A DNA stretch of 64,000 nucleotides from Patescibacteria group bacterium. Lineage in GTDB: Bacteria; Patescibacteriota; Microgenomatia; UBA1400; PJMF01. The translations under genes and the position numbers were made by a program. Of the stretch, positions 75-30,502 are shown piece by piece (position 1 is the stretch's first letter; the number at the start of each line of letters is the position of its first letter). A model generated the notes under the pieces. That model did no database searches. It was not told the origin of the DNA and saw only the letters and a list, made by a program, of their open reading frames with translations. The stretch spans positions 8,131 to 72,130 of the forward strand of contig JBPOHR010000011.1 in the NCBI GenBank assembly GCA_052035325.1. Reading direction: 5' to 3'.

Positions 75-101
75 TTAGCAGTCTACTCTATCGACTGCTA
101 A
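75..101. promoter_or_regulatory. 27-bp palindromic site TTAGCAGTC-N9-GACTGCTAA (copy 1), candidate recombinase/regulator site
   Basis: Exact 9-bp inverted arms with a 9-bp spacer; a second copy of identical architecture lies at 2053-2079. Confidence 0.5.
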
Positions 102-135
102 CAGCCGATAGAAATATAGGCAGTGATTTCTCCAG

Positions 136-2226: not shown

Positions 2227-4968
2227 CTAAACAGTAGCAGTCGTTGCATTCGCTGCAACTGGTTCTTCTTTATAGGTCAACGCAACAGCAACAACACGAT
2301 CACTGCCATTCATGCGCATCAAAATCACACCTTGTGTCGGACGAGTGAGCACGGGAATGGTTTTAGCGTCGATTGGTAATTTGATGGTAATGCCGCCATT
2401 GGTACTCATCACAACCTCTTCATGTTCGTGTGTGACCATGCGAGCGGTGGCGACGTTGCCAGTGCGGGCGGTGATGTCAGAAACTTTGACACCGAGGCCA
2501 GCACGCTTCTGTAGCGGGTACTCTGATAATGCCGAGCGTTTGCCCAGACCTTTTTCGGTGACCACAAGCAGTTGATGGAATTGACCAGCTGTTGGCTTTT
2601 CGCTATCGAGTTGAGGTGAGAAAGCCTCCACACCAATGACGTAGTCGTCTTTTTGCAGTGTAATGCCGCGGACGCCTTTGGTGTCACGGTTGGAGTCTTT
2701 GATTTCAGCCTCGGAGAAGCGAATAGACTTGCCATGATAGGTAATCAGCATCACGTGGTCAGTTCCCGTAGTCAATTGTCCCCAGACAAGTTCGTCACCA
2801 TCGTTGAGGACGATGGCCACAATGCCGTTTTGGCGGATGTTTTGGTAGAGTTTGACAGCAGTTTTCTTGACTAAACCACATCGAGTGGCGAGGGTGATGA
2901 AGTTATTAGCGTCTTTGGTTTCATCGAGGGTGAGGATGGCTTGGACGGTTTCCTCTGCTTTGAGGTTGATTAGGTTGACTACCGCGGTGCCTTTTGCCTG
3001 GCGACTCGATTCTGGAATGTCATAGGCTTTAAGTTTGAAAACTCGACCCTGATTGGTGAACAGGAGCAGCGTCTCATGTGTGTCGGCTGTGAGGAGCGAT
3101 TTGACGGCATCTTCTTCTTTCATTTTGACACCGGTGGCACCTTTACCACCTCTGGCCTGACTGCGGAAAGCGGAGGGGCTGAGGCGCTTGATGTAGCCTG
3201 TTTCGGTCAGAGTGATGACGGTAGGTTCGTTGGCGACGAGATCTTCTTCAGAAAATTCACCGACTTTGCTCTTGACCACTTTGGTGCGGCGATCGTCGCC
3301 GTAGAGGGTCTTGAGCTCATTGGTTTCGTTGACAATTACCTCGAGAATGAGATCGGGATGACTCAGTAATTTGATTAAGGTATCGATGCGCGCTTTGAGT
3401 TCTTTATACTCGTCTTCGATCTTCTGACGTTCGAGAGCGGCTAGACGTTTGAGCTGCATTTCCAGAATGGCTGTAGCCTGTACTTCGGACAGACCAAACT
3501 TGGACATTAAGGCAGCTCGGGCAGTATCAGTGTCAGCTGAGCGACGGATGGTTTCGATGACGTCATCGAGGTTTTTGAGGGCAATGAGTAGGCCTTCAAG
3601 GATGTGAGCGCGGTCACGAGCCTCGCCGAGTTCGAATTGGGTGCGGCGGACGGCGACGAGCAAGCGATGTTGGATGTACTCACGCAAAATTTGCTTAATG
3701 TTCATCAATTGAGGTGTGCCCTCACTCGAGAGCGCCACCATATTGACCGGGAAACTGACTTGGAGTTCGGTGTGTTTGAAGAGTTGATTGAGGACCACTT
3801 TGGGTCGAGCGTCGCGCTTCAGATCAATGGTGATTTGCAGACCAACACGGTCAGAGTCGTCATTGAGGTCGCGGATGCCTTCCAGCTTCTTATCGCGGAC
3901 GAGGTCGGCGATTTTCATGAGGAGCCGAGCTTTGTTTACTTGGTACGGCAATTCAGTAACAATGATCTGGAAGCCACCTTTTTTGGTTTCTTCGATGCTG
4001 GCTTTGGCACGGATGACTACTTTGCCTTTGCCGGTGGCATAGGCTTCACGGATGGCTTTGACGTCGTAAATAATACCAGCTGTCGGGAAGTCTGGGCCCT
4101 GAATGTGATCCATGATTTGATCACTGGTAATTTCACTGGTGAATGTTCCAGCTAGTAACTTGGGATCGGTGGCAAGTACTTCATCGATTTTGTCGGAGGT
4201 TTTCTCGAGTGTGGTGGAAGATTTACCGGCTTTGATAGTGGCAATGATGGCATCACAGACCTCGTTGAGGTTGTGAGGTGGGATTTTGGTGGCCATACCT
4301 ACCGCAATACCTTCCGAACCCATCAGCAACAAATTTGGCAAGCGACCTGGAAGGACGGCCGGCTCTTGCATTGAGCCGTCAAAGTTATCGACAAACGGGA
4401 CGGTGTCTTTGTCGAGGTCAATTAAGAGTTCTTGAGAAATCTTGGCCAGTCTTGCTTCGGTGTACCGCATGGCGGCTGGACTGTCGCCATCAATCGAGCC
4501 AAAGTTTCCTTGACCATCGATTAAGGGATAGCGCATGCTGAAGTCTTGGGCTAGCCGGACCAGTGCACCGTAGACTGGCGCATCACCGTGTGGATGGTAA
4601 CGACCCAGTACGTCACCGACGATACGGGCACATTTCTTGTACGCACTGGTATGGTGGAAACCCGACTTGTACATCGAGTACAGGATGCGACGATGGACGG
4701 GCTTCATGCCGTCACGCACATCGGGTAGAGCTCTGGAAACGATGACACTCATGGCGTAGTCGAGGTAGGACTTCTCCATTTCACTGACGATGGAAATGTA
4801 CTTCAACTTACCAAAGCGACTTTCTTCGATAGTGCCGATGGGCGTAACTGACTCGGAGGTGGTATTTGTTTCCACGGGAGTTGCTATCTCGGAAGTGGTA
4901 GCCTCAGTAGAGGTGTCACTCTCGGTGGTATCGGTTAGTTCGTCGTCGCGGATTTGGTCATCAGTCAT
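2227..4968 (-). CDS. gyrA: DNA gyrase subunit A
   Basis: YLDYAMSVIVSRALPDVRDGMKPVHRRILY signature, QRD/breakage-reunion region and C-terminal beta-pinwheel repeats; about 60-aa acidic/Thr-rich N-terminal extension if the first ATG is used. Confidence 0.95.
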   Translation of the reverse strand: MTDDQIRDDELTDTTESDTSTEATTSEIATPVETNTTSESVTPIGTIEESRFGKLKYISIVSEMEKSYLDYAMSVIVSRALPDVRDGMKPVHRRILYSMYKSGFHHTSAYKKCARIVGDVLGRYHPHGDAPVYGALVRLAQDFSMRYPLIDGQGNFGSIDGDSPAAMRYTEARLAKISQELLIDLDKDTVPFVDNFDGSMQEPAVLPGRLPNLLLMGSEGIAVGMATKIPPHNLNEVCDAIIATIKAGKSSTTLEKTSDKIDEVLATDPKLLAGTFTSEITSDQIMDHIQGPDFPTAGIIYDVKAIREAYATGKGKVVIRAKASIEETKKGGFQIIVTELPYQVNKARLLMKIADLVRDKKLEGIRDLNDDSDRVGLQITIDLKRDARPKVVLNQLFKHTELQVSFPVNMVALSSEGTPQLMNIKQILREYIQHRLLVAVRRTQFELGEARDRAHILEGLLIALKNLDDVIETIRRSADTDTARAALMSKFGLSEVQATAILEMQLKRLAALERQKIEDEYKELKARIDTLIKLLSHPDLILEVIVNETNELKTLYGDDRRTKVVKSKVGEFSEEDLVANEPTVITLTETGYIKRLSPSAFRSQARGGKGATGVKMKEEDAVKSLLTADTHETLLLFTNQGRVFKLKAYDIPESSRQAKGTAVVNLINLKAEETVQAILTLDETKDANNFITLATRCGLVKKTAVKLYQNIRQNGIVAIVLNDGDELVWGQLTTGTDHVMLITYHGKSIRFSEAEIKDSNRDTKGVRGITLQKDDYVIGVEAFSPQLDSEKPTAGQFHQLLVVTEKGLGKRSALSEYPLQKRAGLGVKVSDITARTGNVATARMVTHEHEEVVMSTNGGITIKLPIDAKTIPVLTRPTQGVILMRMNGSDRVVAVALTYKEEPVAANATTATV

Positions 4969-11943: not shown

Positions 11944-13146
11944 ATGGATATTTTTAAGTACAAAGTCAAAAATCAGCATGGAGAAACGATTGCTGGCAAG
12001 GTAGAGGCGCAGAGTCTAGCTCAAGCCGCAGCAGTATTGCGGGGACGCGGTTTGTTGGTGATCTCTGTCAAACCACAAAGCTCGTTTACTAGTGCGAAAC
12101 TACAAGAGTTTTTCGGGGGCGTTAAGCAAGATGAAGTAGTGACCCTGACGAGACAACTATCGACCATGATCACTGCTGGCTTACCACTTATCCAGGCAAT
12201 GTCGATTTTGGCGCAACAAAGCAAGCCTTCCCTTTCGCACCTGGTAAGCGAGTTACAGCGAGAAATTGAAGGCGGCAGCACGTTTGCCAAAGCGTTGGAG
12301 CGATTCCCGAAACAATTTTCTCGGGTCTATATTCAGCTAGTCCGGGCTGGTGAAATTGGCGGTGTCTTGGATGAAGTGTTGCAACGTCTAGCAGACAATA
12401 TGGAAAAAGATAAAGAGTTTCGTGCGAAGACGCGTGGGGCACTCATTTATCCGGCAATCGTTGTCATGGCATTGGTAGTAGTCGCAGCGGTGATGATGAT
12501 CTTTGTGATTCCAAAATTGACGGAAATGTACAAAGATTTTGGTGCAGAACTTCCACTGCCGACGCAAATTTTAATCAGCATGTCCAACTTTTCAGTCAAC
12601 TACTGGTGGATTATCCTGGCGGGAGTGATTGGCGGGACAGTATTCTTTAAGCGGTGGGTTGCAACCAAAGCCGGTCGGCACACCTTTGACAATTTCAAAC
12701 TCAAGATTCCTGTTTTCGGTATCCTTGTCTCAAAGATTATCCTGACCGAGTTTGCACGGACGCTTTCGTTGCTACTGGGCGCGGGCATATCCCTTCTACA
12801 GGCTTTGCAGATCGTGTCAGGTGCTTCAAGCAATGTCATTTTTCGCGAGGCGATGGAAGAATCTGCTCGACAAGTTGAGAAAGGTGTGCCCTTGTCTCAA
12901 TCTTTGTCGAGTTACAAAGTATTTCCACCTATTTTGTCACAAATGATTGCAGTAGGAGAAGAAACGGGCAAACTTGATGACGTGTTGATGAAGCTGTCAA
13001 AATACTTTGAAGCAGAGAGTGAAAATGCCGTGAAAAATATGACAACAGCATTGGAACCGATGATCATGATTGTGTTAGGAATTGGTGTGGGCGTGATGGT
13101 TATCGCCGTGATTATGCCAATTTACAATTTGACGAGTCAGTTTTAG
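11944..13146 (+). CDS. pilC: Type IV pilus platform protein PilC (GspF family)
   Basis: Two T2SS-F repeats, 3 TM segments, 400 aa, start overlaps the pilT stop. Confidence 0.85.
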   Translation: MDIFKYKVKNQHGETIAGKVEAQSLAQAAAVLRGRGLLVISVKPQSSFTSAKLQEFFGGVKQDEVVTLTRQLSTMITAGLPLIQAMSILAQQSKPSLSHLVSELQREIEGGSTFAKALERFPKQFSRVYIQLVRAGEIGGVLDEVLQRLADNMEKDKEFRAKTRGALIYPAIVVMALVVVAAVMMIFVIPKLTEMYKDFGAELPLPTQILISMSNFSVNYWWIILAGVIGGTVFFKRWVATKAGRHTFDNFKLKIPVFGILVSKIILTEFARTLSLLLGAGISLLQALQIVSGASSNVIFREAMEESARQVEKGVPLSQSLSSYKVFPPILSQMIAVGEETGKLDDVLMKLSKYFEAESENAVKNMTTALEPMIMIVLGIGVGVMVIAVIMPIYNLTSQF

Positions 13147-13298: not shown

Positions 13299-13946
13299 AT
13301 GTATTCTCCAAAAATGCTTACTCGCAGGCTGTCAGCGCAGCTGCATTCTCGTCAGTTAGTTCAAGCTGGTTTCACCATGATTGAGCTCTTGGTGGTGATT
13401 GCCATTCTAGGTATTTTGGCTGTAGCCGTACTTTCAGCAATCAACCCTATTGAGCAAATCAATCGGGGTCGCGATACGGCTTCCCAATCTGATGCGGAAC
13501 AGCTGCTGTCCGCTATTGATCGCTACGTAGCTTTCCAAGGCTATTTGCCATGGCAAAGTTCTCCAGATTCAACCACGCGCGAACTTGCTTGGGGCGAGTT
13601 TACTGATACGTTGGTGGATGATGGCGCTCCTACTGCATGTGCGGTTTATGTCAAACTCGGCGAAGGTGACACAAATTGTGAGGGCGCAGGTGAGCTCAAG
13701 GCGACCTTCTTCAATCGGATCCTCCGGGCCACTACACCAAATGCTAATCCACTCTACGTCTATCGCGGTGCTGGCGTGAGTGATAGTACCTATGCTTGCT
13801 TTGTGCCACAGTCACAAGCCTTCATGAACTTGGCAGTCAAGCGATGTGGAACTGCCGGAGATGGTTTGCCAACTGATGTTGATGCAACAACTGCTGATCT
13901 CATCTGTCCGGCTGATCCCGCAGGCACGTTCTACTGTATTCCTTAA
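13299..13946 (+). CDS. pilA: Type IV (major) pilin, class III signal peptide
   Basis: Prepilin motif ...QAG/FTMIELLVVIAILGILAVAV with Glu at +5; C-terminal Cys pairs; follows a long 5' intergenic region. Confidence 0.85.
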   Translation: MYSPKMLTRRLSAQLHSRQLVQAGFTMIELLVVIAILGILAVAVLSAINPIEQINRGRDTASQSDAEQLLSAIDRYVAFQGYLPWQSSPDSTTRELAWGEFTDTLVDDGAPTACAVYVKLGEGDTNCEGAGELKATFFNRILRATTPNANPLYVYRGAGVSDSTYACFVPQSQAFMNLAVKRCGTAGDGLPTDVDATTADLICPADPAGTFYCIP

Positions 13947-14031: not shown

Positions 14032-14865
14032 ATGCTTATCGCTTTTTTGTTGACCTCTACTCTACTTTTTGTCATCGGTGCTATTTTGGGAAGTTTTCTC
14101 AATGTGGTGATTTATCGCACACTCGATGATGATCCCGTCAAGCGACATGAGTCTTGGATGTCAGGATGGTCGCGGTGTGACTCATGCCACCACCGAATTG
14201 CCTGGTACGACAATATTCCACTCGTGTCGTACGTGGTATTGCAGGCCAAGTGTCGTAACTGTCATAAGCCAATCGGGGCAGCCCACCCCATGGTGGAGCT
14301 ACTGACAGGATCACTGCTGGTGTGGTGGTATTGGGGTGGTTCATTGTTTTTCCAGATTACCAAAGCACCGTTCCATACATTACAGCCGCTATTTTGGTTG
14401 AGTGTGGGTGTGTTGTTATTGGTGATTGCTTTGGCCGATCTTCGTTACTGGATTATTCCTGACTGGGCTGTGGTGATGTTGACTGGCTTGACTGTTCTGT
14501 ATCGAGTAGTCTTGGTAGGTGCTGGAGTGATGCAGTATCCCGATCTGGTGGCAACGCTGATTGCCAGTGTGCTAGCGACCGCCGGCTTGGGCGTATTATG
14601 GCTTGCCACCAAACGACAAGGTATTGGTTTGGGTGATGTTAAGTTGATGTTTCCACTGGGGTTGCTGGTGGGTTGGCCAAATGTGTTGGTGACGTTATTC
14701 TTGGGTTTTGTGTTGGGAGCGGTGGTTGGTATTGCCTTAGTCTTGCGCAAAACAAAAAACATTCATCAGGCAATCCCCTTTGGACCTTTTTTGGTACTCG
14801 CAAGTTGTGTAAGCTTAGTATGGGGAGACCGCATTGTGTCGTGGTATCTCCAGTTGCTTCGATGA
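14032..14865 (+). CDS. pilD: Prepilin peptidase PilD (A24 family)
   Basis: Zn-binding CDSCHHRI...CRNCHKPI tetracysteine, multi-TM, two catalytic Asp regions. Confidence 0.85.
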   Translation: MLIAFLLTSTLLFVIGAILGSFLNVVIYRTLDDDPVKRHESWMSGWSRCDSCHHRIAWYDNIPLVSYVVLQAKCRNCHKPIGAAHPMVELLTGSLLVWWYWGGSLFFQITKAPFHTLQPLFWLSVGVLLLVIALADLRYWIIPDWAVVMLTGLTVLYRVVLVGAGVMQYPDLVATLIASVLATAGLGVLWLATKRQGIGLGDVKLMFPLGLLVGWPNVLVTLFLGFVLGAVVGIALVLRKTKNIHQAIPFGPFLVLASCVSLVWGDRIVSWYLQLLR

Positions 14866-15785
14866 GAATCTTACGTTTTTTTATCACATCTCTTCTTATT
14901 ACTGCTTTGTTGGCAGGCACAGTATTTGTAATAGCTCGAGAAGCACTGCTTTTTTTGGCTACTAATCAAGTTAAATCGAGCATCACAACTATAGCTAGGA
15001 CCAATTATCTTCCTGGGGTGCCCCATATTGATTGTCAAACTCAGGGAAAAATTACCAGTGACATGACATTGATTAACGTGTATGCAGTCCAGCTAGGTTT
15101 TAGTGACGATCAGCATTTCACCTGGGAAGTTATTTGCGATTCCCCTCTCCGCGAGCCAAAAGTGTTGGCAGACTATGTATTACCACCTTTTGTCTACAAA
15201 ATAGCAGGCTCAGGTGGCCTTGTTTGGCGACAGCCGTACTCTGCTTTCACTTTGGAGGTATGGGGACGTCGTCGATCGTTTATATTAGAAAATCAATCTC
15301 TCCGTGTTACAGAAGGTAGCTTGACGCAGCCTCCTGATCAGCAACCAGTGGTGATGTGTGCGGGGATGGGTTACCAGTGTTGTCAACTTGATTCCGAGCA
15401 AGGTCTGGGGGCGGTGGCATCTGAAGTGCGAGACTGTCCACTGTCTTGTTTTGCACGCTGTCAAAGTCGACCAGTTATTTTGTCATTTAATACTGAACCA
15501 TATACTGATGCTCAAACTCGAGTGCTTGAAGTTGCTTCTGGGGATTTGATTTCATTTAATTATGTCATCGACGCAGGTGCGGGTGGTGATGTGACAACAG
15601 AGCTGTCTTTTGGGGATGGTGAAGTGAGTAAAGGTACAGAAGCAACAGCAACGGTTGAGCATACCTATCGGTGCCTGGCGCAGGTATGCGAATATCGGGC
15701 TACATTGGAGGCGACAGATGCTAGAGGGGCGACATCGCCGAGCAGTACAGTCAACACACTTACCATCAGGGTGACAGGCCGCTAA
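14862..15785 (+). CDS. Membrane-anchored Cys-rich protein with C-terminal PKD-like domain
   Basis: N-terminal TM helix, many Cys, LSFGDGEVSKG...VEHTY....YRATLEATDARG resembles the PKD signature (WDFGDG...HTY); ATGA start/stop overlap with pilD. Confidence 0.5.
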   Translation: MRILRFFITSLLITALLAGTVFVIAREALLFLATNQVKSSITTIARTNYLPGVPHIDCQTQGKITSDMTLINVYAVQLGFSDDQHFTWEVICDSPLREPKVLADYVLPPFVYKIAGSGGLVWRQPYSAFTLEVWGRRRSFILENQSLRVTEGSLTQPPDQQPVVMCAGMGYQCCQLDSEQGLGAVASEVRDCPLSCFARCQSRPVILSFNTEPYTDAQTRVLEVASGDLISFNYVIDAGAGGDVTTELSFGDGEVSKGTEATATVEHTYRCLAQVCEYRATLEATDARGATSPSSTVNTLTIRVTGR

Positions 15786-15799
15786 AAAATCGGTATAGT

Positions 15800-16261
15800 G
15801 TGATCATGAGCTTTCTTTTTTCTCAGCAAAAAACTCGACGTGCCAATGGGTTTACTCTGATTGAAATGTTGATTGTGATGGTAATTATTGGGATTTTGAC
15901 AACCTTGGTGGCGACCAACTTAGTGACGGCGCAGAGCCGTGGACGCGACGCGAAACGCAGGGCTGACATAAAAGCACTCCAGACAGCCTTCGAACTGTAC
16001 TACTCTGAAAATGGCTCATATGCCGCAACGTGTGATGCAATGGCCACAACGGCCTATCTTCCTCAGGGAGTTACTGCTGACCCTTCGACAAGTATCCCCT
16101 ACACGCACCAGAGCACTTGCCAAGTTGATACCACTGATTATTGTATTTGTGCGGAACTAGAGCGCGGCGGCGGCAATGCCACTGAGGGTCCTAGTTCGGC
16201 GCAATGTACGTATGCCAGTTCTGGTGAACGTCTCTGGTACTGCCAGAGTAATGTGCAGTAA
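15800..16261 (+). CDS. Type IV pilin/pseudopilin
   Basis: N-terminal ...ANG/FTLIEMLIVMVIIGIL prepilin motif; Cys pairs in C-terminal half. Confidence 0.75.
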   Translation: MIMSFLFSQQKTRRANGFTLIEMLIVMVIIGILTTLVATNLVTAQSRGRDAKRRADIKALQTAFELYYSENGSYAATCDAMATTAYLPQGVTADPSTSIPYTHQSTCQVDTTDYCICAELERGGGNATEGPSSAQCTYASSGERLWYCQSNVQ

Positions 16262-16270
16262 AGGTATGGT

Positions 16271-16756
16271 ATGACACAACACACTCACTCTACCCTCCCC
16301 CCGCGAGCGACCGGTTTTACCCTGATTGAAATTCTGATTGCAGTAGCGATTATGGTGATTTTAACCACGATTGGTTTGGTAAGTTACCGACAGGTGGGGA
16401 TTGGTGCTCGGGATGGCAAACGCAAAGCAGATTTAGAATCTGTACGCCAGGCATTGGTGTTTTATCGCACTGATGAGGGGATGTATCCGGATATAGCGAA
16501 TGCTGATATTAGTGGTGATTGTAGTGGCGGCTCTGATGCTCGCAGTGGTTTTGAGGAAATGCTTGGTGAATTGTCGAGCGAAGGGTATGTGACGGTGACC
16601 GGGAATGGTCTGAAAGATCCAAAGGATGGTATAGAGTGCTATGGGTATCGATATCGCAGTCCTGACAACGGAGCAACGTTTGAACTATGTGCCAAATTAG
16701 AGAGTGATGCAACTCCCACCACTCATAGTGATGACTATTGTGCCAACAGTCCATAA
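16271..16756 (+). CDS. Type IV pilin/pseudopilin
   Basis: ...ATG/FTLIEILIAVAIMVIL prepilin motif. Confidence 0.75.
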   Translation: MTQHTHSTLPPRATGFTLIEILIAVAIMVILTTIGLVSYRQVGIGARDGKRKADLESVRQALVFYRTDEGMYPDIANADISGDCSGGSDARSGFEEMLGELSSEGYVTVTGNGLKDPKDGIECYGYRYRSPDNGATFELCAKLESDATPTTHSDDYCANSP

Positions 16757-17252
16757 CACACTCATATCTGGACGCCAAGCTGGTTTCTCGGCTGGGTTTA
16801 CTATGATCGAATTGTTGGTCACGGTGACGGTTTTGTTGTTGATAACTGGATCAGGTATAGCAGCTATGATGCGGTTCAACGACCGCCAGTCTTTGCGAGA
16901 TAGTGCGCGAACATTGCAATCAACGCTGAAAAGTGCTGCTACGAGGGCAAAAATTGGTGATGTTCCTTCCGCATGTTTTGACGCTGCCGCAAAGTTGACA
17001 GGATACCGAGTCACTTTGATTCAAGGTACAGGAATAGTGACGGTTGAAGCAATGTGTGGGGCCCAAATCGTTTTGGTTGATCAGTTTTCCCTACCCAATT
17101 TTGTGGTGAGTGATACCACCGCCACTTTGGTGTTTTGGCCACTGTATGGAGGTGTGCAGGGAGCAACAGTCATTACGTTGGAGAAGGCACCGTTGCAGTA
17201 TCAGTTTGAAGTGACAACCGAGGGTGAGATTACTGACGGGGATTTTGAATGA
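16704..17252 (+). CDS. Type IV minor pilin-like protein (long leader; overlaps previous gene by 53 nt)
   Basis: ...SAG/FTMIELLVTVTVLLL prepilin motif; only in-frame ATG upstream is 16704. Confidence 0.6.
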   Translation: MMQLPPLIVMTIVPTVHNTLISGRQAGFSAGFTMIELLVTVTVLLLITGSGIAAMMRFNDRQSLRDSARTLQSTLKSAATRAKIGDVPSACFDAAAKLTGYRVTLIQGTGIVTVEAMCGAQIVLVDQFSLPNFVVSDTTATLVFWPLYGGVQGATVITLEKAPLQYQFEVTTEGEITDGDFE

Positions 17253-17761
17253 AAAAATCTTCTTTGTTGCAAACAGCTCTTAATCGGCGTCAACGACAGA
17301 ATCAACAAGGATCGGGGATTATTGAGGTCTTGATTGCCACCTTGGTGGTGGGAATGACACTGACTTCGGTAGCGGCAGTACTGACACTGTCGCTGAAAGC
17401 TAATGGCCAAAACCGACTGCGTGCCATAGCTCAGACACGTGCCCAAGAAGGTGTGGAAACATTCAGTCGCTATCGTGATGAGCTGGGGTGGCGGGCGTTC
17501 AGCACGCAGTTTCCGGCCGATACGCCTACAATCTACTGTCTAGACCCTTTACCAACATCGATGGCAGAATTCAGTACTATGGCGCCAGGTGCATGTACAC
17601 AAGGTGTGCAGCTTGTGGGTACCAGTTTCACCCGCCAGGTTGAAGTCACGCCACTCGGCGTCAGTCCGACGACAGCTGTGGGGATTCGTGTGACTGTTAG
17701 TTGGGAGGATGGCAATCAGACCAAGGACGTGACCTTGTATCAGGTGTTGAAGGATATTTGA
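17249..17761 (+). CDS. Type IV minor pilin-like protein (PilV/PilW-like)
   Basis: QQGSG/IIEVLIATLVVGMTL hydrophobic N-terminus with Glu at +5. Confidence 0.55.
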   Translation: MKKSSLLQTALNRRQRQNQQGSGIIEVLIATLVVGMTLTSVAAVLTLSLKANGQNRLRAIAQTRAQEGVETFSRYRDELGWRAFSTQFPADTPTIYCLDPLPTSMAEFSTMAPGACTQGVQLVGTSFTRQVEVTPLGVSPTTAVGIRVTVSWEDGNQTKDVTLYQVLKDI

Positions 17762-17820
17762 TAAAAACTTAGTGCTGTAATAGCTGGTTTTTAATCGATA
17801 AATTACGCTAAAAATAAAAA

Positions 17821-18792
17821 ATGTCAAAAGAATCACTTCACACAAAACTGAGTAGAGCAGCTGAAATGCTAGGCAGGCTGTTGGAAGGTTTAAAGCGAAA
17901 AAGACGGTTCAACAATCAAACTAAGGAGACAGTACGTGCTGAGGAATCGACTCTTGAAACCGGAGAAAAAATATTTGATGAGATAGTACGTGCTGAGGAA
18001 TCGACTCTTGAAACCGGAGAAAAAATATTTGATGAGACAGTACGTGCTGAGGAATCGACTCCTGAAAGCAGAGAAAAAAAACTTGATGAGGGAGCAATTC
18101 GAGATGTTGTAAGAAAGTGCAGAATACCAACATTTGCCTCAGGGATCGATGTCGAGACCCTCTCAGAGGGGGTTCAGTTGACTGAAGAACAGCAGCAAGT
18201 AGTTATAGATAATGTCAGAATTTTTTTTGAAGCATTTATCAATGATAAGTACAGAAATAGTGGCATAGCTACAGAAACACGGTTGCCAGTAAATGACTCG
18301 ACGCCACAAGATCAGGCAGAACGCCAGCCTGTGGTGATCCGCTACCAGACCGATTCTGGGAAAATTGGTGGAAGTCTGAATGCAGGTGGGCAGACGTATG
18401 ACAATGATTGGAGTAAGTATCTTACATCAGTTATCACTAGGAGAGTTGGTTTTTCTATTGACTGGAGTAAAAACCCAAGTTTTTCGATATTGTTAACGAC
18501 GCCTGATGGAGAGTTAACACTGTCTGACTTCGAAGGAAATGGTGGTGATCACGCTTTAGATCAGGTGCTCGCTAGTCCTGACGATCTGCCAGAGCAGCCA
18601 TTTAGTGATGACAAACCTGTTGAGCCGAAGGCTATCCTGCCGCGCATCATTTTGCCGCAACGAATTTCGGTTGATGATTTACCGAATCAAACAGGTGACG
18701 TAGTTGTGTTATCCGAATTCTCGCCTGAAGATTGGTTGGTGCTCATTTCCATGCACGTATTCAATCTATTCTTTGCGGAACAAAAATCCTAG
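17821..18792 (+). CDS. Hypothetical protein with three tandem 18-aa repeats (VRAEESTLETGEKIFDE.)
   Basis: 3 x 54-bp near-perfect DNA tandem repeat at 17931-18092 encodes the repeats; acidic; no TM. Confidence 0.5.
   Translation: MSKESLHTKLSRAAEMLGRLLEGLKRKRRFNNQTKETVRAEESTLETGEKIFDEIVRAEESTLETGEKIFDETVRAEESTPESREKKLDEGAIRDVVRKCRIPTFASGIDVETLSEGVQLTEEQQQVVIDNVRIFFEAFINDKYRNSGIATETRLPVNDSTPQDQAERQPVVIRYQTDSGKIGGSLNAGGQTYDNDWSKYLTSVITRRVGFSIDWSKNPSFSILLTTPDGELTLSDFEGNGGDHALDQVLASPDDLPEQPFSDDKPVEPKAILPRIILPQRISVDDLPNQTGDVVVLSEFSPEDWLVLISMHVFNLFFAEQKS
17931..18092 (+). repeat. Tandem direct repeat, 3 x 54 bp (units 1 and 2 differ at one base; unit 3 diverged)
   Basis: agtacgtgctgaggaatcgactcttgaaaccggagaaaaaatatttgatgaga[t/c] repeated head-to-tail. 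Confidence 0.9.
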
Positions 18793-18796
18793 TTCA

Positions 18797-19378
18797 CTAT
18801 CTATTTCTCAACCGTGTTGTGGTAGTAAATGTCTGTTCGACAATATCTTTTGCCTGATCTATTCCCGGTATACCCTTGCGCAAAGTGAACGAAACGTCCA
18901 CAGCAGTCCCCCCTGCTCCACTCTGGCTGCAGTTAAACATCACCCGATCATCAGGATTTGGACCATTTTGAATTAATTCGACAGCAGCCGTCGTCAAGTA
19001 TGTGGTAGCTGTGGCTGAGGTGGAGGCAACTTTATACGTGCCAGAACCAGGCGGATCTTCGAGCGCTGTCAGTGTGTACAATCCACCATCAAAGCCTTTG
19101 ACAACCACCGATGTCATACTTGGTTGACAGGTTTGGCCATCGGCGTTTTGTTGGAGTTCTAGAGCATTACGGAGTAGAAACTCCATTTGTGCAATCGCCG
19201 CCGTGCCTTCCGTTTTTATCAGACTTAAACTATTGGTTTTAGTGTTGCCTATCAGTAGAGTGATGAACAATGTCGACGCAGTTAGCAGCAACATTACTGA
19301 CAACGTCACCACAATCAACAACTCAATTAAAGTAAAACCCCGTTGTGATTGTCGCATTTGATGGGAGTGGGCGTACAT
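18797..19378 (-). CDS. Type IV pilin-like protein (minus strand)
   Basis: QRG/FTLIELLIVVTLSVMLLL prepilin motif. Confidence 0.7.
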   Translation of the reverse strand: MYAHSHQMRQSQRGFTLIELLIVVTLSVMLLLTASTLFITLLIGNTKTNSLSLIKTEGTAAIAQMEFLLRNALELQQNADGQTCQPSMTSVVVKGFDGGLYTLTALEDPPGSGTYKVASTSATATTYLTTAAVELIQNGPNPDDRVMFNCSQSGAGGTAVDVSFTLRKGIPGIDQAKDIVEQTFTTTTRLRNR

Positions 19379-19379
19379 G

Positions 19380-21884
19380 CTAGTTGGTTTCCTGCCAGGT
19401 GTAGCTGGGGCGAGTCATTGGCTCAGGGAGTGTATTCACCAGATCAGGACGGAAGATAAATAGGTCAGCAGGAATGGTGTTGTTATCAGGGTCTGGCAAG
19501 ACACGCTGGAGCGATACACCAGTCCATCCTACAAAACTGCCTGCTCCAACAAATCGTTGATCTGCACTACCCCCTATGGTTCCGGTGCTGATGGTGCCAT
19601 CAGCTACGTAGATGCCCTCCAGATTCGGAGTGGCGTCGGTGCTGACAGGGTTGCCCACACTTGGGTCGATAGTAATATTCCCTTTGACGATAAATGCTAG
19701 ATACCCACCATTTGCGACGGTGATCAGTTGCGGTGTCGCTGGGGTTTCATCAGTAATGGTCAAGTTGCCATCCACAAAGATGGTTAGCGATTCACCACTC
19801 GCTACCTGCCAAGCATTTTTAATAATCAAATCACCCTGGTAATAGTACGCTTCACCACCGTTTGTTGGGGCGATGATGGGTTTTTGGGCATTGAGCGGAT
19901 CAAAGCCATCACTTGCAGGCGCATTTCCTAAACCAAACCGCGCTTTGAAGAAGGCAAAATCCTGGCGACCACTCGCTGTCCCCAAAATACGAGTTGCGGT
20001 ATTGAACACACTCGAGCCACGATCGGTCAACCGCGAGGTGTTGTACCCGTCACTTTCTTGAGTTGTATCAAGTGATGAGCCATTAGTAACGGCAATTCCC
20101 GCCGAATCAGTATCACCTGCCGTGTTGGTAGCCAACAAAAAGGGTGAGCAGCCGGGCGCACTGCAGACAGCACTTGGCGGCACGTTTGAGCCGATTCCCA
20201 GACTCGATGAAGCAGCCGCGTAGACATTGCCACCTTGGACTTGCCACCAGGCAGTGTTTAACACATCAGCAAAGAAAAAGTTATTACCACTTGAGGGCGA
20301 AGAGATGCCACTCAGGACACAGTTACCTCCTACATCCGTGCCACAGTTGCAACGATATGGGATGCCTGTCCCGGACAGTCCGGGGGTGAAGGTGATGACG
20401 TTGTTGGGATTGGTACTCCAGTAGGGCGTGTTGGGGAACGTATAGCTTGACGCACTGAGTGATGGTCCAGTGGTGCTGCTGTAGCCGCCTAAGCCGGCAA
20501 TGCTAATCATGCTACCGGTGCCAGGAGTGACGAGCGAAGCTGTTGCAGGATTGCAAGTGTTGCTGGGGTCGTAGTAGAAGTTACCCGAGACATCGCCAAT
20601 GAGTGAGACGACATGGGTGGCTGTCCAGGTGCCGTTGTCTGCGCCGCCGTAGGCGGCGCAAGTGGTGTTGATTGGTCGGACGCGGACTTCCCAAATAGTG
20701 ATACCTGCTGGGATGCCACTCCAGGTGTATGAGGTACCTGATACCGCTTGGCAAAGGGTATTTCCGCCAGTGCACTCGACTTGACCTTGCGGCGTGATGC
20801 GGATTTCGTAGGCATCAGCCAAGGTGGGTGGTGCGGTCCAAGTGAAGGCGACTTGATCGGTTGTAGGAGTCACTGTGAAAACAGTACCACTGGGTAGTGC
20901 GCCATTTGCCCGTAGGTTAGTGACTGCGACTGGTCCACCATCGTCGGTAGTGGGACAGGTGCCGGTACAGCCATCCCATTGTCCACAAGCACCTCCCGAA
21001 CAGTTAGCCGTACAATTCAAAACCGTGACTTGACGAGAGCCTTCACACTTCAAATCGCTATAGTTACCATCTTCATGAACACGAATTTTCAGAATAGAAG
21101 AGCCAGCAGTGTTGGAAGTCAGATTGGATACAAACGTTGGCCCTGTGCCAATTGAGCTGGGGTTGACAACACCCAGGTTGGCACCGTTCCAAGTGAACGT
21201 ACCGTCCCACCAATTGATTGCCCCATTTGCATAGGCTTGAACTTCTACAGTTTGTCCCAGCGGCATTGTGATTGGTCCGGTGCCAGTCGTGCTAGTAGGC
21301 TGCCACTGCACAGTACAAGCCGCTCCCCCACCTCCACACGTGCCAGGGTCCCAAAGACAGCTTCCATTAGGAGCTAAGACACATTGACTGGGAGGTCCAG
21401 GTGGACAGTTGCTACAAGAAGTGCCACAAGCACCCCAAGTTGGTGGCGGGGGTGGGCCTCCACTGCCACAACTATCAGTTACCCAGTCTGCACATGACTT
21501 AGTATTTGGCATGCAGGAGCTACAGCCAGGACAGTAGAATGTCCCAGAGGGGCAGGATGTAGTAGCACAGGTGATAGTGCTATTCTCATCAATCGTCATA
21601 CAGTGACTAACCCCATCTGGGACATCGCAAGAATCAGTGCAGTTTCTGTGAATTAATGGTAGCGGGCCAGTACAAGCTCCACCGGATAATGAACAACTTC
21701 CGCCGACAATAGTGTCAACTGGTGAGCAACACAATTCATGTGTTAATGGGCTAACAAGCTGTGATTGGCAATACTGTGCAGTATAGGGATACAAATATGT
21801 GCCACACACTTGAGCTGTTGCAGGCATGACATGAACCAATGTGAGAAAAATACAGACAACAGCAATGAGTAGTGCTTTTTTCAT
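19380..21884 (-). CDS. Large secreted Cys-rich protein (candidate pilus-associated adhesin)
   Basis: Signal peptide MKKALLIAVVCIFLTLVHVMPATAQ; about 60 Cys in CxxC/CxC arrays; PPPP tract; Gly/Thr/Ser-rich; stop overlaps start of the upstream pilin-like gene. Confidence 0.5.
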   Translation of the reverse strand: MKKALLIAVVCIFLTLVHVMPATAQVCGTYLYPYTAQYCQSQLVSPLTHELCCSPVDTIVGGSCSLSGGACTGPLPLIHRNCTDSCDVPDGVSHCMTIDENSTITCATTSCPSGTFYCPGCSSCMPNTKSCADWVTDSCGSGGPPPPPTWGACGTSCSNCPPGPPSQCVLAPNGSCLWDPGTCGGGGAACTVQWQPTSTTGTGPITMPLGQTVEVQAYANGAINWWDGTFTWNGANLGVVNPSSIGTGPTFVSNLTSNTAGSSILKIRVHEDGNYSDLKCEGSRQVTVLNCTANCSGGACGQWDGCTGTCPTTDDGGPVAVTNLRANGALPSGTVFTVTPTTDQVAFTWTAPPTLADAYEIRITPQGQVECTGGNTLCQAVSGTSYTWSGIPAGITIWEVRVRPINTTCAAYGGADNGTWTATHVVSLIGDVSGNFYYDPSNTCNPATASLVTPGTGSMISIAGLGGYSSTTGPSLSASSYTFPNTPYWSTNPNNVITFTPGLSGTGIPYRCNCGTDVGGNCVLSGISSPSSGNNFFFADVLNTAWWQVQGGNVYAAASSSLGIGSNVPPSAVCSAPGCSPFLLATNTAGDTDSAGIAVTNGSSLDTTQESDGYNTSRLTDRGSSVFNTATRILGTASGRQDFAFFKARFGLGNAPASDGFDPLNAQKPIIAPTNGGEAYYYQGDLIIKNAWQVASGESLTIFVDGNLTITDETPATPQLITVANGGYLAFIVKGNITIDPSVGNPVSTDATPNLEGIYVADGTISTGTIGGSADQRFVGAGSFVGWTGVSLQRVLPDPDNNTIPADLFIFRPDLVNTLPEPMTRPSYTWQETN

Positions 21885-22451: not shown

Positions 22452-24458
22452 TTATTCGGTGTCCCCGTACCAGAGATCATTGCGAAAGTCATCTACTATT
22501 TCAGTTGGCACGAGCATTGTACTTGCTGAAACAATAAGAGTTTTTCTACTATTAGGAGCATTAGAATTTCCTACCAGAAAATCCATTGTTGTTTGGTCGT
22601 CTCCTCCAGCTGAGTACAGCGCTGAGGCAAGAGCGGCACAGTTTACACCACAATCGAAATGATCAGCTAATCCCTGGGTTAAACTATCTAAAGAAAATAT
22701 TTCTGGATATTCGTTAGACAAACCAAGTCCAAACAAAGTTCCAGGAGGCATATCTGTTTGAAGTGATTCGAATGGACGTCCTTGCATGTCAGCATGCGAT
22801 CCACCGCCATGAATGACAACAGCACTCCCTTCTTGCATTGGGAGTGAGAGTAATACCCACCCTGTCCCATCGCCGGTTGGTACTAACATGTCCAAAAAGC
22901 GTAGAGTTCCTCGAATATCTCCATTTACATATGGACGTGTGCGTATGCCCATAAACCAGCCGACTACTACTAGTCCATCTTGACCTAATATCCTCTCAGG
23001 ATTTGGAGCAATACCCGGTCGCAATCCTGTGAGCTCATTATTAAATGGTACGACAAAGTCATGACCATCAATTCTGAGCACATACCCATTTTCTGTTGAT
23101 GAGTAGCTGATATTAGAGCGAGCCAAGACTTGCTCAATTTGATCAAATGTAGAAGTCGGGTTTTCAAGGACGTTTAGTAAGCTCATTGAGCTCATCGCCT
23201 CAATATCCACAAGCGTTTCCAATACAACAGGGCTGTCTCCAGGATTCAATCCTGGCAGAACTAGCTCAGTCACATTAAGGCTTACCACTCCAAGATTAAT
23301 CCATCCCACCTGACCATTGACACTAACTCGTATCCAGTGACTTTCTGGATCATTTTCACCACCAGAAATCGTCTTCATCGTGGGGAGTCCCATGTATGTT
23401 GATGGCTCAACATTTTCAGTCCAACCCTCTGGTTCATCCGTCGGTGTTTGTGTAGGGACTGGTGTTTCTTCAGTACCAACCGAGCCTATCTCATTGTCCC
23501 CAAACCTTGGCTCAGAGCGCAGGTTAATAGTAGTATTTGGTGTAATTGTTACAGCTGGCAATAATGCTATCGGGATACCTTTTGCAATTATGGTTTTAAT
23601 ATGTACATTTGACCCATCGGTGTTGAAAGATAAAAGAATAAAATTGCCAACCGGTGGGAACTCAAAGTCTTCCAAGCTGGGGTAGGTGGTACGCAAGGTA
23701 GCTATTGTTTCATCTGTTACTTGTATAAATGTTGCTCGCTCATTCTCATTGGCAAACAAATATGAGACAATTTGTTCTCCATTTTGTCCTGTAACTGTCG
23801 TGATCAGTGAACCGGTACCGACAACAGGGCCGTCAGGTACGGTAAATGATTCCGTGCAATGCAATGCAGCTAGCACTCTGAAACCAGTGCGATCTGCGTT
23901 TGGCGTTACAAACAATCTTAACGAAAAGTTGTCCTCGGAAATATCTTCCCGGCCTTCAATGAACCTCCCCATCACTTGCAGCAAAGACTGGATTTCCCTT
24001 CCCAACTCGGAGTTTTCGTCAATTCCATACTCCCCGAAGGGATTTGTCACGGGAAGTTCAAAAGGTTCCGTACCTGGTTGTGTGGCTGAATAGGACAAAA
24101 CTTCAAAAATACCGCCAGACTCTGCAGTGATGCTGACAGGGGTATAGCCTTGAATTTCGTTAGATTCGATCTGTTTTTCAGGCGAGCGATGCTCCAAAAG
24201 CGAGTCAATCTCAGTGTTAGGAGGTGCAATGTGTGGATCTCCGGCAGGAGGATCTTCGTTATTTATTACGTCTCGCTCAGCATTGGCGGGTATTACCCGT
24301 CCAAGCAGTGCAGATAGCGCAACTGCTAAAACCACCAGACGTCTATTAAGTCCACGTCTCTCACCTGAGCGCGGAACCATATTCGGCAATTTACCACGAT
24401 CACGTACAATTGTTGTGCCTGCTGTTTCTTTTAAATTGTTCATTGTTTCGTCTACCAT
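22452..24458 (-). CDS. Large hypothetical secreted/membrane-anchored protein
   Basis: N-terminal anchor LVVLAVALSALLG; PT-rich linker; no confidently recognisable catalytic motif. Confidence 0.4.
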   Translation of the reverse strand: MVDETMNNLKETAGTTIVRDRGKLPNMVPRSGERRGLNRRLVVLAVALSALLGRVIPANAERDVINNEDPPAGDPHIAPPNTEIDSLLEHRSPEKQIESNEIQGYTPVSITAESGGIFEVLSYSATQPGTEPFELPVTNPFGEYGIDENSELGREIQSLLQVMGRFIEGREDISEDNFSLRLFVTPNADRTGFRVLAALHCTESFTVPDGPVVGTGSLITTVTGQNGEQIVSYLFANENERATFIQVTDETIATLRTTYPSLEDFEFPPVGNFILLSFNTDGSNVHIKTIIAKGIPIALLPAVTITPNTTINLRSEPRFGDNEIGSVGTEETPVPTQTPTDEPEGWTENVEPSTYMGLPTMKTISGGENDPESHWIRVSVNGQVGWINLGVVSLNVTELVLPGLNPGDSPVVLETLVDIEAMSSMSLLNVLENPTSTFDQIEQVLARSNISYSSTENGYVLRIDGHDFVVPFNNELTGLRPGIAPNPERILGQDGLVVVGWFMGIRTRPYVNGDIRGTLRFLDMLVPTGDGTGWVLLSLPMQEGSAVVIHGGGSHADMQGRPFESLQTDMPPGTLFGLGLSNEYPEIFSLDSLTQGLADHFDCGVNCAALASALYSAGGDDQTTMDFLVGNSNAPNSRKTLIVSASTMLVPTEIVDDFRNDLWYGDTE

Positions 24459-24766
24459 GACTCTTTTCTAGCACACTCTATGTGTAAAAGAAAGGTAGGT
24501 AGTCTGTTGCATTTTTTTACTACATTTTGGTGTTATAGTTATTTATTATAAGCCTAATTAAGTTTATAAAAAAAATACCCTATAGCACCTGGTAGGCGCA
24601 TTATACAAAAGGCCTAGAGAAATATAAATGTGTATTTAATGAGTATGTAAAAATTGACATGTATGTTAATTATACCTATTTCATCTAGTGGTAAAATATA
24701 CAGGCGTTGAGCTGGGATATAACCTGGGACACAACAACATGAGATAATTTATAAATAAGTGAAAAT

Positions 24767-25741
24767 ATGTTAGATGAACAGAAATCTAAAAGAATTTTTA
24801 TTGAATCTCCACTCTTAGATGTAAATCAAGTAGCTGCCTTTTTGTTTTCACTTCGACCAGAAAGGCCCCAAAGAGTGGTTGCATCACGATATGTTGCACG
24901 GGCTAAACTGACAAGTAGAGACAGACAAAACACAAAAAAAGCATATGAAAATGGTTCGGCTACGGAATTTGCTTCACTATATGAATGGGATCCTTCTGTT
25001 GTTAGGTCATCATTGATTGATAGCATAGGTCCTTTTGTCGAGGCTTTTGATGATACTAATAAAGATAAAAAAAAGTCTTGGATTTTGTTGGTTGGTTGTG
25101 GAACGGGCAGGGATTTCATGGAACTTTGGAAAAGAGGATTTAATGCTCTAGCTTTTGATATCTCTATGGCAATGATAGAAAATCTTAAAAGAATTTTGAC
25201 AAATTCATTAGTGCCACCTCATAATGTAGCGTTAATGTTGAACGAAGTTGCTCGTGACCTCAATCAGGTGGTCTTTGTTGCGGATGTAATGGACCCCTCT
25301 TGGAGGCGAAACAGCAGCGTTGCATCAGGTGAAGTTGATTTATTTGATGCTGTATTTGCTGAAACTGTTTTAGGGCATCTAGACAAGGAAGAAGTATTTG
25401 AATTTTTTGAAAGATATTCTAACAATCTGTCACAGGGTGGAATAATACGAGCAGGTTTGAGAATTTCCAAGAGTGGAAAAGTGTTTATTCTTGAAGACAG
25501 TCTTGGATCAAGAAGTTTTACAACGTGGAAATTCGAAGATCTATGGTTGACTACTCTAACGAGAAAAGGTACACAAATTACAGATTATGATCACATGGGC
25601 GAGCTGGGTGAATTACTCAAATATCTAGCAGAAATAGGTTTGAGAATTATAAAAATCTACACGAATAAACATCCATGCTCCACAGAAGAAAACCCCCGAC
25701 CAGATACATTAAATCTGATTTTACAAAAAGTAACTAGATAG
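24767..25741 (+). CDS. Class I SAM-dependent methyltransferase (AT-rich island)
   Basis: Motif I LLVGCGTGRDFMEL and post-I acidic residue ..AFDIS; the ORF is about 30-38% GC vs about 48% in flanking DNA. Confidence 0.6.
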   Translation: MLDEQKSKRIFIESPLLDVNQVAAFLFSLRPERPQRVVASRYVARAKLTSRDRQNTKKAYENGSATEFASLYEWDPSVVRSSLIDSIGPFVEAFDDTNKDKKKSWILLVGCGTGRDFMELWKRGFNALAFDISMAMIENLKRILTNSLVPPHNVALMLNEVARDLNQVVFVADVMDPSWRRNSSVASGEVDLFDAVFAETVLGHLDKEEVFEFFERYSNNLSQGGIIRAGLRISKSGKVFILEDSLGSRSFTTWKFEDLWLTTLTRKGTQITDYDHMGELGELLKYLAEIGLRIIKIYTNKHPCSTEENPRPDTLNLILQKVTR

Positions 25742-25780
25742 AATACGTCACGATTATTTTTTCTCTGATATAATATAGCA

Positions 25781-26365
25781 ATGAATATTTATTTTACTGC
25801 AGCTATTTTTCAAATGCCGACACATGGTGGCTATTACGCAAAGATAATTGAGACATTAAAAAAACAAGGCCATAACGTCGTTCACGATCATATTACCGAT
25901 TATACTCCCGATGATTTTGGATCTCTTGTAAGTCAGACAGACGAGAACAAGAAGCAATACTACTCCAAGGTATTGAAATGGATTTCCAAGGCAGACTTAG
26001 TAGTTGCAGAATTGTCATTTCCCTCAACTTTGAATGTAGGACATGAGGTAACGATGGCTCTGAGTAAGGGTAAGCCTGTAGTTGGTCTATACTTTAAAGA
26101 TCAAGAATCTTTTTTCTTTGAAGGGATTCAATCAGACAAATTTGTTTACGAATCATATACAGCTGAGACCTTAGCTGAAACACTTGAGCAAGCACTAGAA
26201 TATGCTCAGGAAATTTCAGATACCCGTTTCAATTTCTTCATCTCCCCTTCTCTCTCGCACTACCTAGACTGGGTGTCACAAACAAAAAAAATCCCCAGGT
26301 CTGTCTACCTTCGTCAACTGATTGAAGAGGACCGTGAGCAGAATAAAGCATACTTTGATGCGTAG
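25781..26365 (+). CDS. Nucleoside 2-deoxyribosyltransferase-like (NDT/DNPH1-like) protein
   Basis: MNIYFTAAIF start and ...LNVGHEVTMALSKGKPVVGLY resemble the NDT 'MKIYLAGPFF ... GTAFEIGYA.A.GKPV' core; paralog of 33398..33835. Confidence 0.5.
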   Translation: MNIYFTAAIFQMPTHGGYYAKIIETLKKQGHNVVHDHITDYTPDDFGSLVSQTDENKKQYYSKVLKWISKADLVVAELSFPSTLNVGHEVTMALSKGKPVVGLYFKDQESFFFEGIQSDKFVYESYTAETLAETLEQALEYAQEISDTRFNFFISPSLSHYLDWVSQTKKIPRSVYLRQLIEEDREQNKAYFDA

Positions 26366-26454
26366 CTAGAGCTGGTGAGCTGTCTCCCCGACACAAGAGA
26401 CCATTTTTTCCTCAAGCATTGCAGAATGTCGCCAAACCCATTACGATGGTGTAG

Positions 26455-30070: not shown

Positions 30071-30502
30071 TTAAGGGGTAACAGGAGTTTCGGTAGCAGG
30101 TGCAGCCTCAACGGGTGCAGCTTCTGGTGTGGCGACGACCTCTGGGGCTGGTGCAGCTTTGGCAACTTCATCAGCTGCTTTTGCTTCCGAAGCGGCTTTT
30201 GCGTCAGCTTCTGCTTTGGCACGTACCTTTTTGGAAGGTTTAGCGGCTTTGGGAGGGAAAGGATTACCGGATTCGTAACGGCGTACTAGACTAGCAACCG
30301 TATCAGTGGGTTGAGCACCTTTGGCAAGCCAGGATTTATAGGCATCAAGATCGATGACTAGGATTTTCGGATTTTGGGTCGGGGCATACTGGCCGATAGC
30401 AACAACGTATTGCCCATCGCGTTTGTCTCGAGCTTCGTTGATCACGATCCGATAGTGTGGTTGGTGGCGTTTGCCGAAGCGAGCAAGTTTGATTTTCAAC
30501 AT
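30071..30502 (-). CDS. rpsP: 30S ribosomal protein S16 with Lys/Ala-rich C-terminal extension
   Basis: MLKIKLARFGKRHQPHYRIVI... canonical S16 N-terminus; about 60-aa KA/PE-rich tail. Confidence 0.9.
   Translation of the reverse strand: MLKIKLARFGKRHQPHYRIVINEARDKRDGQYVVAIGQYAPTQNPKILVIDLDAYKSWLAKGAQPTDTVASLVRRYESGNPFPPKAAKPSKKVRAKAEADAKAASEAKAADEVAKAAPAPEVVATPEAAPVEAAPATETPVTP

Follow-up and report, generated by a model that had tools for sequence, protein, structure and literature searches.

A probably lineage-specific, in-frame triplication of a 54-bp unit in the linker of a rare orphan protein encoded beside type IV pilus operons

The 54-bp repeat of ORF323 is most likely a lineage-specific triplication that lies in frame in the linker of a rare protein of unknown function, soluble and probably cytoplasmic, whose gene is a mere neighbour of pilus operons. 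Tandem Repeats Finder placed the array at 17926..18090 of the window (the whole 64-kb stretch of DNA analysed here), with a period of 54, 3.1 copies, 93% matches, no indels and a score of 288, and it is the sole strong tandem array in the window. The other array reported by the program, at 30166..30217, is a weak 18-bp repeat of 2.9 copies with 70% matches and a score of 55. In the codon register the 54-bp array occupies 17926..18087, with about three units:

17926..17979, plus strand: repeat unit 1, ETVRAEESTLETGEKIFD
17980..18033, plus strand: repeat unit 2, EIVRAEESTLETGEKIFD, one base off unit 1
18034..18087, plus strand: repeat unit 3, ETVRAEESTPESREKKLD, five bases off unit 1
17921..18133, minus strand: antisense ORF of 70 aa, a stop-free reverse frame of the repeat

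The earlier note had described a perfect threefold repeat of 54 bp, a description that does not hold, as two near-identical units are followed by one at 91% identity to unit 1. The single base by which it had separated units 1 and 2 was found, as a C->T change at unit position 5 that replaces Thr with Ile. The five bases changed in unit 3 with respect to unit 1 are all non-synonymous (L->P, T->S, G->R, I->K and F->L). Thus, the peptide that had been given for the unit, VRAEESTLETGEKIFDE, is right for units 1 and 2 but not for unit 3, which reads VRAEESTPESREKKLDE. All six inter-unit differences are non-synonymous; with 77% of the sites non-synonymous this outcome has a chance probability of P = 0.21, which is not significant and gives no ground for invoking selection. 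In the window, a 51-nt core of the unit has exactly two occurrences (0 expected in 100 shuffles), and no further copies of the unit were seen within the window or in the fetched loci. The antisense ORF exists and is, as had been proposed, a by-product of the repeat: its translation is merely the repeat read backwards, with QESIPQHVLSHQIFFLRF twice in full together with partial and variant copies.

The array begins 105 bp after the start codon and lies wholly inside an intact ORF, in frame at 18 codons per unit. It has the structure of an in-frame coding tandem repeat of the minisatellite/VNTR type, in which a unit of at least 10 bp and divisible by three is repeated head to tail within an intact ORF.

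An exact-pattern scan of metagenomes with the repeat core returned one match of 27 nt, GATAGTACGTGCTGAGGAATCGACTCT, from repeat unit 2 (window 17982..18008, equal to 90..116 of locus L008 and to 3109..3135 of locus L009). Both contigs that carry it (CAJHYB010000415 and CAJHYB010000545) are metagenomic and GC-rich (58-60%). There the match falls in a non-coding stretch, with a 'gctataat' box ~25 nt before it and, ~45 nt after it, an ORF that starts MFLAQTVLHSVI. The rough chance expectation for such a 27-mer is ~1e-3, assuming ~1e12 bases in the collection. It was discarded as a second allele of the repeat, since the two contigs share no other similarity with the window.

The gene that carries the array is present at the place and with the length that the earlier note had given, and comparison with its two homologues divides the product as follows:

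17821..18792, plus strand: protein-coding gene of 323 aa (ORF323), with two homologues; uncharacterised three-member family
17821..17925, plus strand: conserved N-terminal segment, residues 1-35 (SLHTKLSRAAEMLGRLLEGLKRKRR), predicted helical, matching the P0002 and P0003 N-termini in the alignment made after deletion of the repeat block
18088..18789, plus strand: short linker and conserved C-terminal domain common to P0002 and P0003, from the homologue alignment

The only real relatives of ORF323 found by an exhaustive phmmer search of 1.84 billion representative proteins are P0002 (275 aa, E 4.6e-15; 3e-28 in a pairwise BLASTP against ORF323) and P0003 (269 aa, E 1e-7), both of them 27-35% identical to ORF323 over the full alignment. 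A word-indexed search of 5.8 billion protein clusters gave a single match, P0001, which is the gene's own database copy at NCBI (308 aa) and forms a one-member cluster on one 83,001-nt contig. Word-indexed searches of the same 5.8 billion clusters with three-member profiles, with and without the repeat block, added nothing beyond P0003 and P0001, and the family alignment retrieved no relatives from metagenome or viral contigs. Two further candidates, P0004 (E 1e-6) and P0005 (E 5e-6), are long, internally repetitive, eukaryotic-looking proteins, each of whose repeats matches one and the same query stretch of 55-65 residues at ~20-33 bits; they were rejected because their significance is a summation over repeats. 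Neither ORF323 nor its two homologues had a meaningful match in Pfam, PHROGs, NCBIfam, PADLOC or PDB sequences, the best sub-threshold hits (E 0.03-0.3) lying in the helical N-terminus or being confined to single members of the family.

These comparisons show that ORF323 is a real gene of a very rare orphan family. The C-terminal domain carries the conserved motifs EQQQVVIxNV, TDSGR, DWxxNPxFxI, RxIxPxR, NQxGxxV and PEDxLVLxSxxxFN, and on this basis the three-member family could be entered as a domain of unknown function. The product is acidic and hydrophilic (pI 4.7, GRAVY -0.55), and the G+C content of the gene (43%) is slightly lower than the mean of the window (46.5%). The database copy starts at 17866 (Met16). 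Counting from the ATG at 17821, the first 15 residues can be aligned with the N-terminus of each homologue, which supports the upstream start; the true start is thus probably ATG 17821 and the database start is probably 15 codons too short.

Removal of residues 36-89 (3 x 18 aa) leaves a protein of 269 aa, and its alignment with P0002 (275 aa) and P0003 (269 aa) runs from end to end, including the N-terminal helix (SLHTKLSRAAEMLGRLLEGLKRKRR versus SIFERLTQSQSLTKLKEGLYLLLRG). After this helix there is a poorly conserved spacer that ends in P-[TP]-F and is followed by the conserved domain. The homologues contain no repeat units, against three in ORF323, a difference which at 27-35% identity speaks of expansion over a long time-scale. 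Because the repeat-deleted protein aligns end to end with these repeat-free homologues, the whole 54-residue block is, as judged from the alignment, a lineage-specific insertion between the conserved N-terminal helix and the conserved C-terminal domain. A single ancestral unit may instead have been present and then lost by both homologues; only two homologues are available for the comparison, both are distant, and the alignment of the linker is poor. Read as an insertion, the block is a clean small example of linker growth by tandem duplication, since the homologues give the exact state before it (269 aa versus 323 aa).

The block forms a glutamate-rich segment of 54 residues that is probably helical. 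AlphaFold2 reached a mean pLDDT of 36 from the single sequence and of 35 from the three-sequence alignment, a model too poor for a fold search. In it a single helix spans residues 3-78 at low confidence, with the N-terminal segment at pLDDT 55-65, and the remainder is of no use. With the model having failed, the terms linker and helix are used here as descriptions suggested by the conservation pattern and the composition. The period of 18 residues equals five α-helical turns. The helical hydrophobic moment (muH) of unit 1 is 0.47, a value reached by 1.5% of shuffles (p ~0.015), and that of units 1 and 2 taken together is 0.51, reached by 0 of 2000 shuffles; these two units would form an amphipathic helix with its repeat in step with the turns. 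Unit 3, with a muH of 0.21, is average: the amphipathic pattern is lost and a proline is gained.

The recent expansion that had been proposed is supported, as units 1 and 2 differ at 1 of 54 bases, the longest exact period-54 run measures 53 bp, and the array is absent in both homologues. The near-identity of units 1 and 2 therefore indicates a recent duplication or homogenisation, and with both homologues free of the repeat the array is therefore a lineage-specific expansion. It would have originated by replication slippage (slipped-strand mispairing) or by unequal recombination between short direct repeats. At least two events would have taken place, in an order that we infer from the divergence: an older one that gave rise to the present unit 3, 9% diverged, and a recent one, or a gene conversion, that gave rise to units 1 and 2, one base apart. 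Its position in a spacer of low conservation would explain why the insertion was tolerated. As to mechanism, units could still be gained or lost, the 53-bp exact direct repeat being a competent substrate; this would only lengthen or shorten the spacer, and the gene could not be turned off in this way. As 54 bp make 18 codons, whole-unit changes stay in frame and phase variation by frame shifting is impossible, so that this route to the phase variation considered in the earlier note is closed.

The gene lies in a region rich in type IV pilus functions, which reads as follows:

8791-10809, plus strand: T2SSE ATPase, type IV pilus locus
10823-11941, plus strand: PilT-like T2SSE, type IV pilus locus
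11944-13146, plus strand: T2SSF platform protein, type IV pilus locus
13299-13946, plus strand: pilin-like gene, type IV pilus locus
14032-14865, plus strand: prepilin peptidase, type IV pilus locus
14673..15785, plus strand: PKD-domain protein, placed after the prepilin peptidase gene and before the minor pilins
15800-17761, plus strand: four pilin-like genes, the last one at 17249..17761
18797..19378, minus strand: pilin-like gene at the end of a convergent operon

The mechanical ORF of the PKD-domain protein uses a TTG start and overlaps the peptidase gene by ~190 bp; its true start is probably further downstream, for example at the Met of MRILRFFITSLL.

ORF323 is located between the last pilin-like gene (17249..17761) and the convergent one (18797..19378). 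The spacer that separates it from the former is 59 bp long and holds no terminator-like site. No promoter-like sites were detected in 17200..19500, and the single terminator-like site of this interval is on the minus strand at 18955..18943, outside ORF323. The predicted RNA folding of the 59-bp upstream intergenic stretch is no better than that of shuffles (z = 0.1). Co-transcription of ORF323 with the pilin genes is possible.

A closer inspection of the protein revealed no features of an exported or pilus-bound product. Class III pilin signals consist of a short basic leader, a G/F-T-L-I-E motif and a hydrophobic N-terminal helix of ~20 residues (PF07963). Sequence analysis of ORF323 found no signal peptide, transmembrane segment, pilin motif or hydrophobic N-terminus. 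Its maximum 19-residue Kyte-Doolittle mean is 1.03, versus 2.35-2.69 in the four neighbouring pilin-like proteins tested, and this most hydrophobic stretch corresponds to the conserved C-terminal PEDxLVL helix. Five neighbouring genes match the Pfam family N_methyl (E 5.5e-9 to 0.067), and ORF323 gives no match to it at E<=0.1. By these characters ORF323 is neither a type IV pilin nor a minor pilin, and nothing in it points to the environment-exposed product of a contingency locus; the protein is probably soluble and cytoplasmic.

The homologues are found in other surroundings. P0002 (loci L004-L007, on four ENA contigs) has hypothetical genes on one side and a PolX-type polymerase, LemA and an M48 peptidase on the other, and P0003 adjoins HisG. 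No pilus genes were seen near P0002 in L004-L007 or on the contig of P0003, and the P0002 locus and the window have no genes in common. The nearest genome found, locus L002 of Patescibacteria group bacterium BroJett032 (PilC 66% identical), keeps the order gyrB, holB, pilB, pilT, pilC, pilin, pilD, PKD protein and minor pilins. The slot that matches ORF323 (15851..20701 of L002) is occupied there by an AAT-family gene, an aldo-keto reductase and a carboxylate-reductase-like protein of 950 aa with AMP-binding and NAD_binding_4 domains, and tblastn gave no match to ORF323 in L002 at E < 1. Because this slot holds unrelated metabolic genes, the junction of the two convergent pilin operons is a variable region that holds unrelated genes. 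ORF323 thus does not show the conserved linkage of a type IV pilus accessory gene; on the gene order compared here, it adjoins the type IV pilus operons and is not a conserved part of them. The designation "pilus-locus ORF" in the earlier note is correct only as a position, between pilin-like genes. Its reading of the gene as surface- or pilus-associated finds no backing: the export and pilin signals are missing, the homologues are outside pilus loci, and the slot of the relative differs.

Other parts of the convergent operon and its surroundings showed features of their own. The operon that converges on the pilin genes encodes two large proteins of unknown function, one of 834 aa, cysteine-rich and with only a weak DUF7305 match (19380..21884, minus strand), and another of 668 aa with a weak SH3_3 match (22452..24458, minus strand). 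No counterpart of either was detected in L002, and both may be lineage-specific candidates for pilus-tip proteins or adhesins. Between pilus-associated genes there is also a low-GC island at 24400..26400 (0.30-0.39, compared with 0.465 for the window) with a gene for a SAM-methyltransferase-domain protein (24767..25741) and another for a nucleoside 2-deoxyribosyltransferase-like protein (25781..26365). The island may be an acquired insert.

Three other explanations of the array were weighed against a lineage-specific triplication in a linker. In one of them the locus is variable in the manner of contingency genes, so that frequent gain and loss of 54-bp units alters a pilus- or surface-associated protein and produces phase or antigenic variation. 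The near-identical units 1 and 2, with their 53-bp exact direct repeat, are a suitable substrate for slippage, and the gene follows the last pilin-like gene at 59 bp with no terminator-like site between them. In addition, tandem repeats of minisatellite size, in that case promoter repeats, vary at 1e-2 to 1e-3 per chromosome in isogenic populations of M. tuberculosis (PMC12817950). However, classical phase variation proceeds mainly by frame shifting (PMC5320596), and an 18-codon unit cannot act as a frameshift switch. Contingency loci change the reading frame or the spacing of a promoter, and here the unit sits inside the ORF and in frame. The array has only three copies, one of them diverged, and the protein lacks a signal peptide, a transmembrane segment and a pilin motif. 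The members of the family are not linked to pili, and the slot is filled by unrelated genes in L002. No variant alleles were found, the protein cluster having one member and the metagenome scans returning none. With neither a sign of surface location nor a frame-shifting unit, the contingency or antigenic-variation reading of the earlier note is not supported, and we regard it as very unlikely.

An error of assembly would leave a true locus of one, two or more than three units, with a short repeat loop or strain variants mis-resolved. The source contig is probably a metagenome assembly, judging from its relatives, which are MAGs. Tandem repeats are well known to introduce errors into assemblies and databases, and in a contig of that kind the count of near-identical units may be off (PMC6868369). 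The 162-bp array is about as long as a short read, and the one base that separates units 1 and 2 could be a SNP between strains. Against this, the private substitutions (five in unit 3 and one in unit 2) define at least two, and probably three, distinct unit sequences in a unique order, assemblers usually collapse repeats and seldom expand them, and the reading frame is kept throughout. An artefact is thus unlikely. It is highly improbable, in turn, that an acidic amphipathic helix of 18 residues was multiplied under selection as a structural module, for instance a stalk for dimerisation or partner binding, possibly with a pilus-related role in this lineage. The unit does correspond to exactly five α-helical turns, units 1 and 2 are significantly amphipathic, every inter-unit difference is non-synonymous and the gene adjoins a pilin operon. 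Unit 3, however, has lost the amphipathic pattern and gained a proline, six non-synonymous changes out of six are compatible with chance, the homologues function without the block, and no confident structure is at hand. More speculative still, and rather far-fetched, would be that the type IV pilus locus of Patescibacteria has recruited ORF323 as an accessory factor restricted to this lineage, with an actively expanding acidic amphipathic helix module whose repeat number tunes the length of a stalk or spacer joining an N-terminal interaction helix to a novel C-terminal domain. If true, the protein would be a variable-length adaptor in the attachment machinery of an episymbiont.

The preferred reading, a triplication within a linker, can be set beside systems already described. 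Adjacency to pilin genes likens ORF323 to the accessory or minor pilin genes of Patescibacteria type IV pili, as it lies directly downstream of four pilin-like genes and is convergent with another, in a locus that has T2SSE (two genes), T2SSF and a prepilin peptidase as those systems do. Unlike minor pilins, it has no N-terminal methylation motif or hydrophobic helix, and unlike pilus accessory genes its homologues are not pilus-linked and it is missing from the slot in L002, a relative with the same gene order. The contingency loci of Neisseria and Haemophilus resemble it in having a repeat tract that could in principle slip, placed for ORF323 in the 5' part of the coding region. These loci typically have units of 1-7 bp in long tracts that shift the frame or the promoter spacing (PMC5320596), whereas the 54-bp unit of ORF323 keeps the frame, has three copies and is in coding and not promoter DNA. 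The lesson is that repeat content together with adjacency to pilin genes does not make a contingency locus.

The closest likeness is with in-frame coding minisatellites, such as those of staphylococcal SD-repeat proteins and mycobacterial PE/PPE variants. In both cases the unit measures tens of bases and its length is divisible by three, near-identical copies stand head to tail inside the ORF, slippage or unequal recombination is the expected origin, and copy number alters the length of the protein and not its expression (PMC3324548). A bias toward in-frame structural variants is reported for pe/ppe genes (PMC12817950). ORF323 differs from the staphylococcal and mycobacterial cases in its three copies only, in having no secretion or anchoring signal, in belonging to a three-member orphan family and to no known adhesin or surface family, and in that no polymorphism was observed. 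In itself the array is of little consequence, being a coding duplication of the ordinary minisatellite type within an orphan family that is still uncharacterised.
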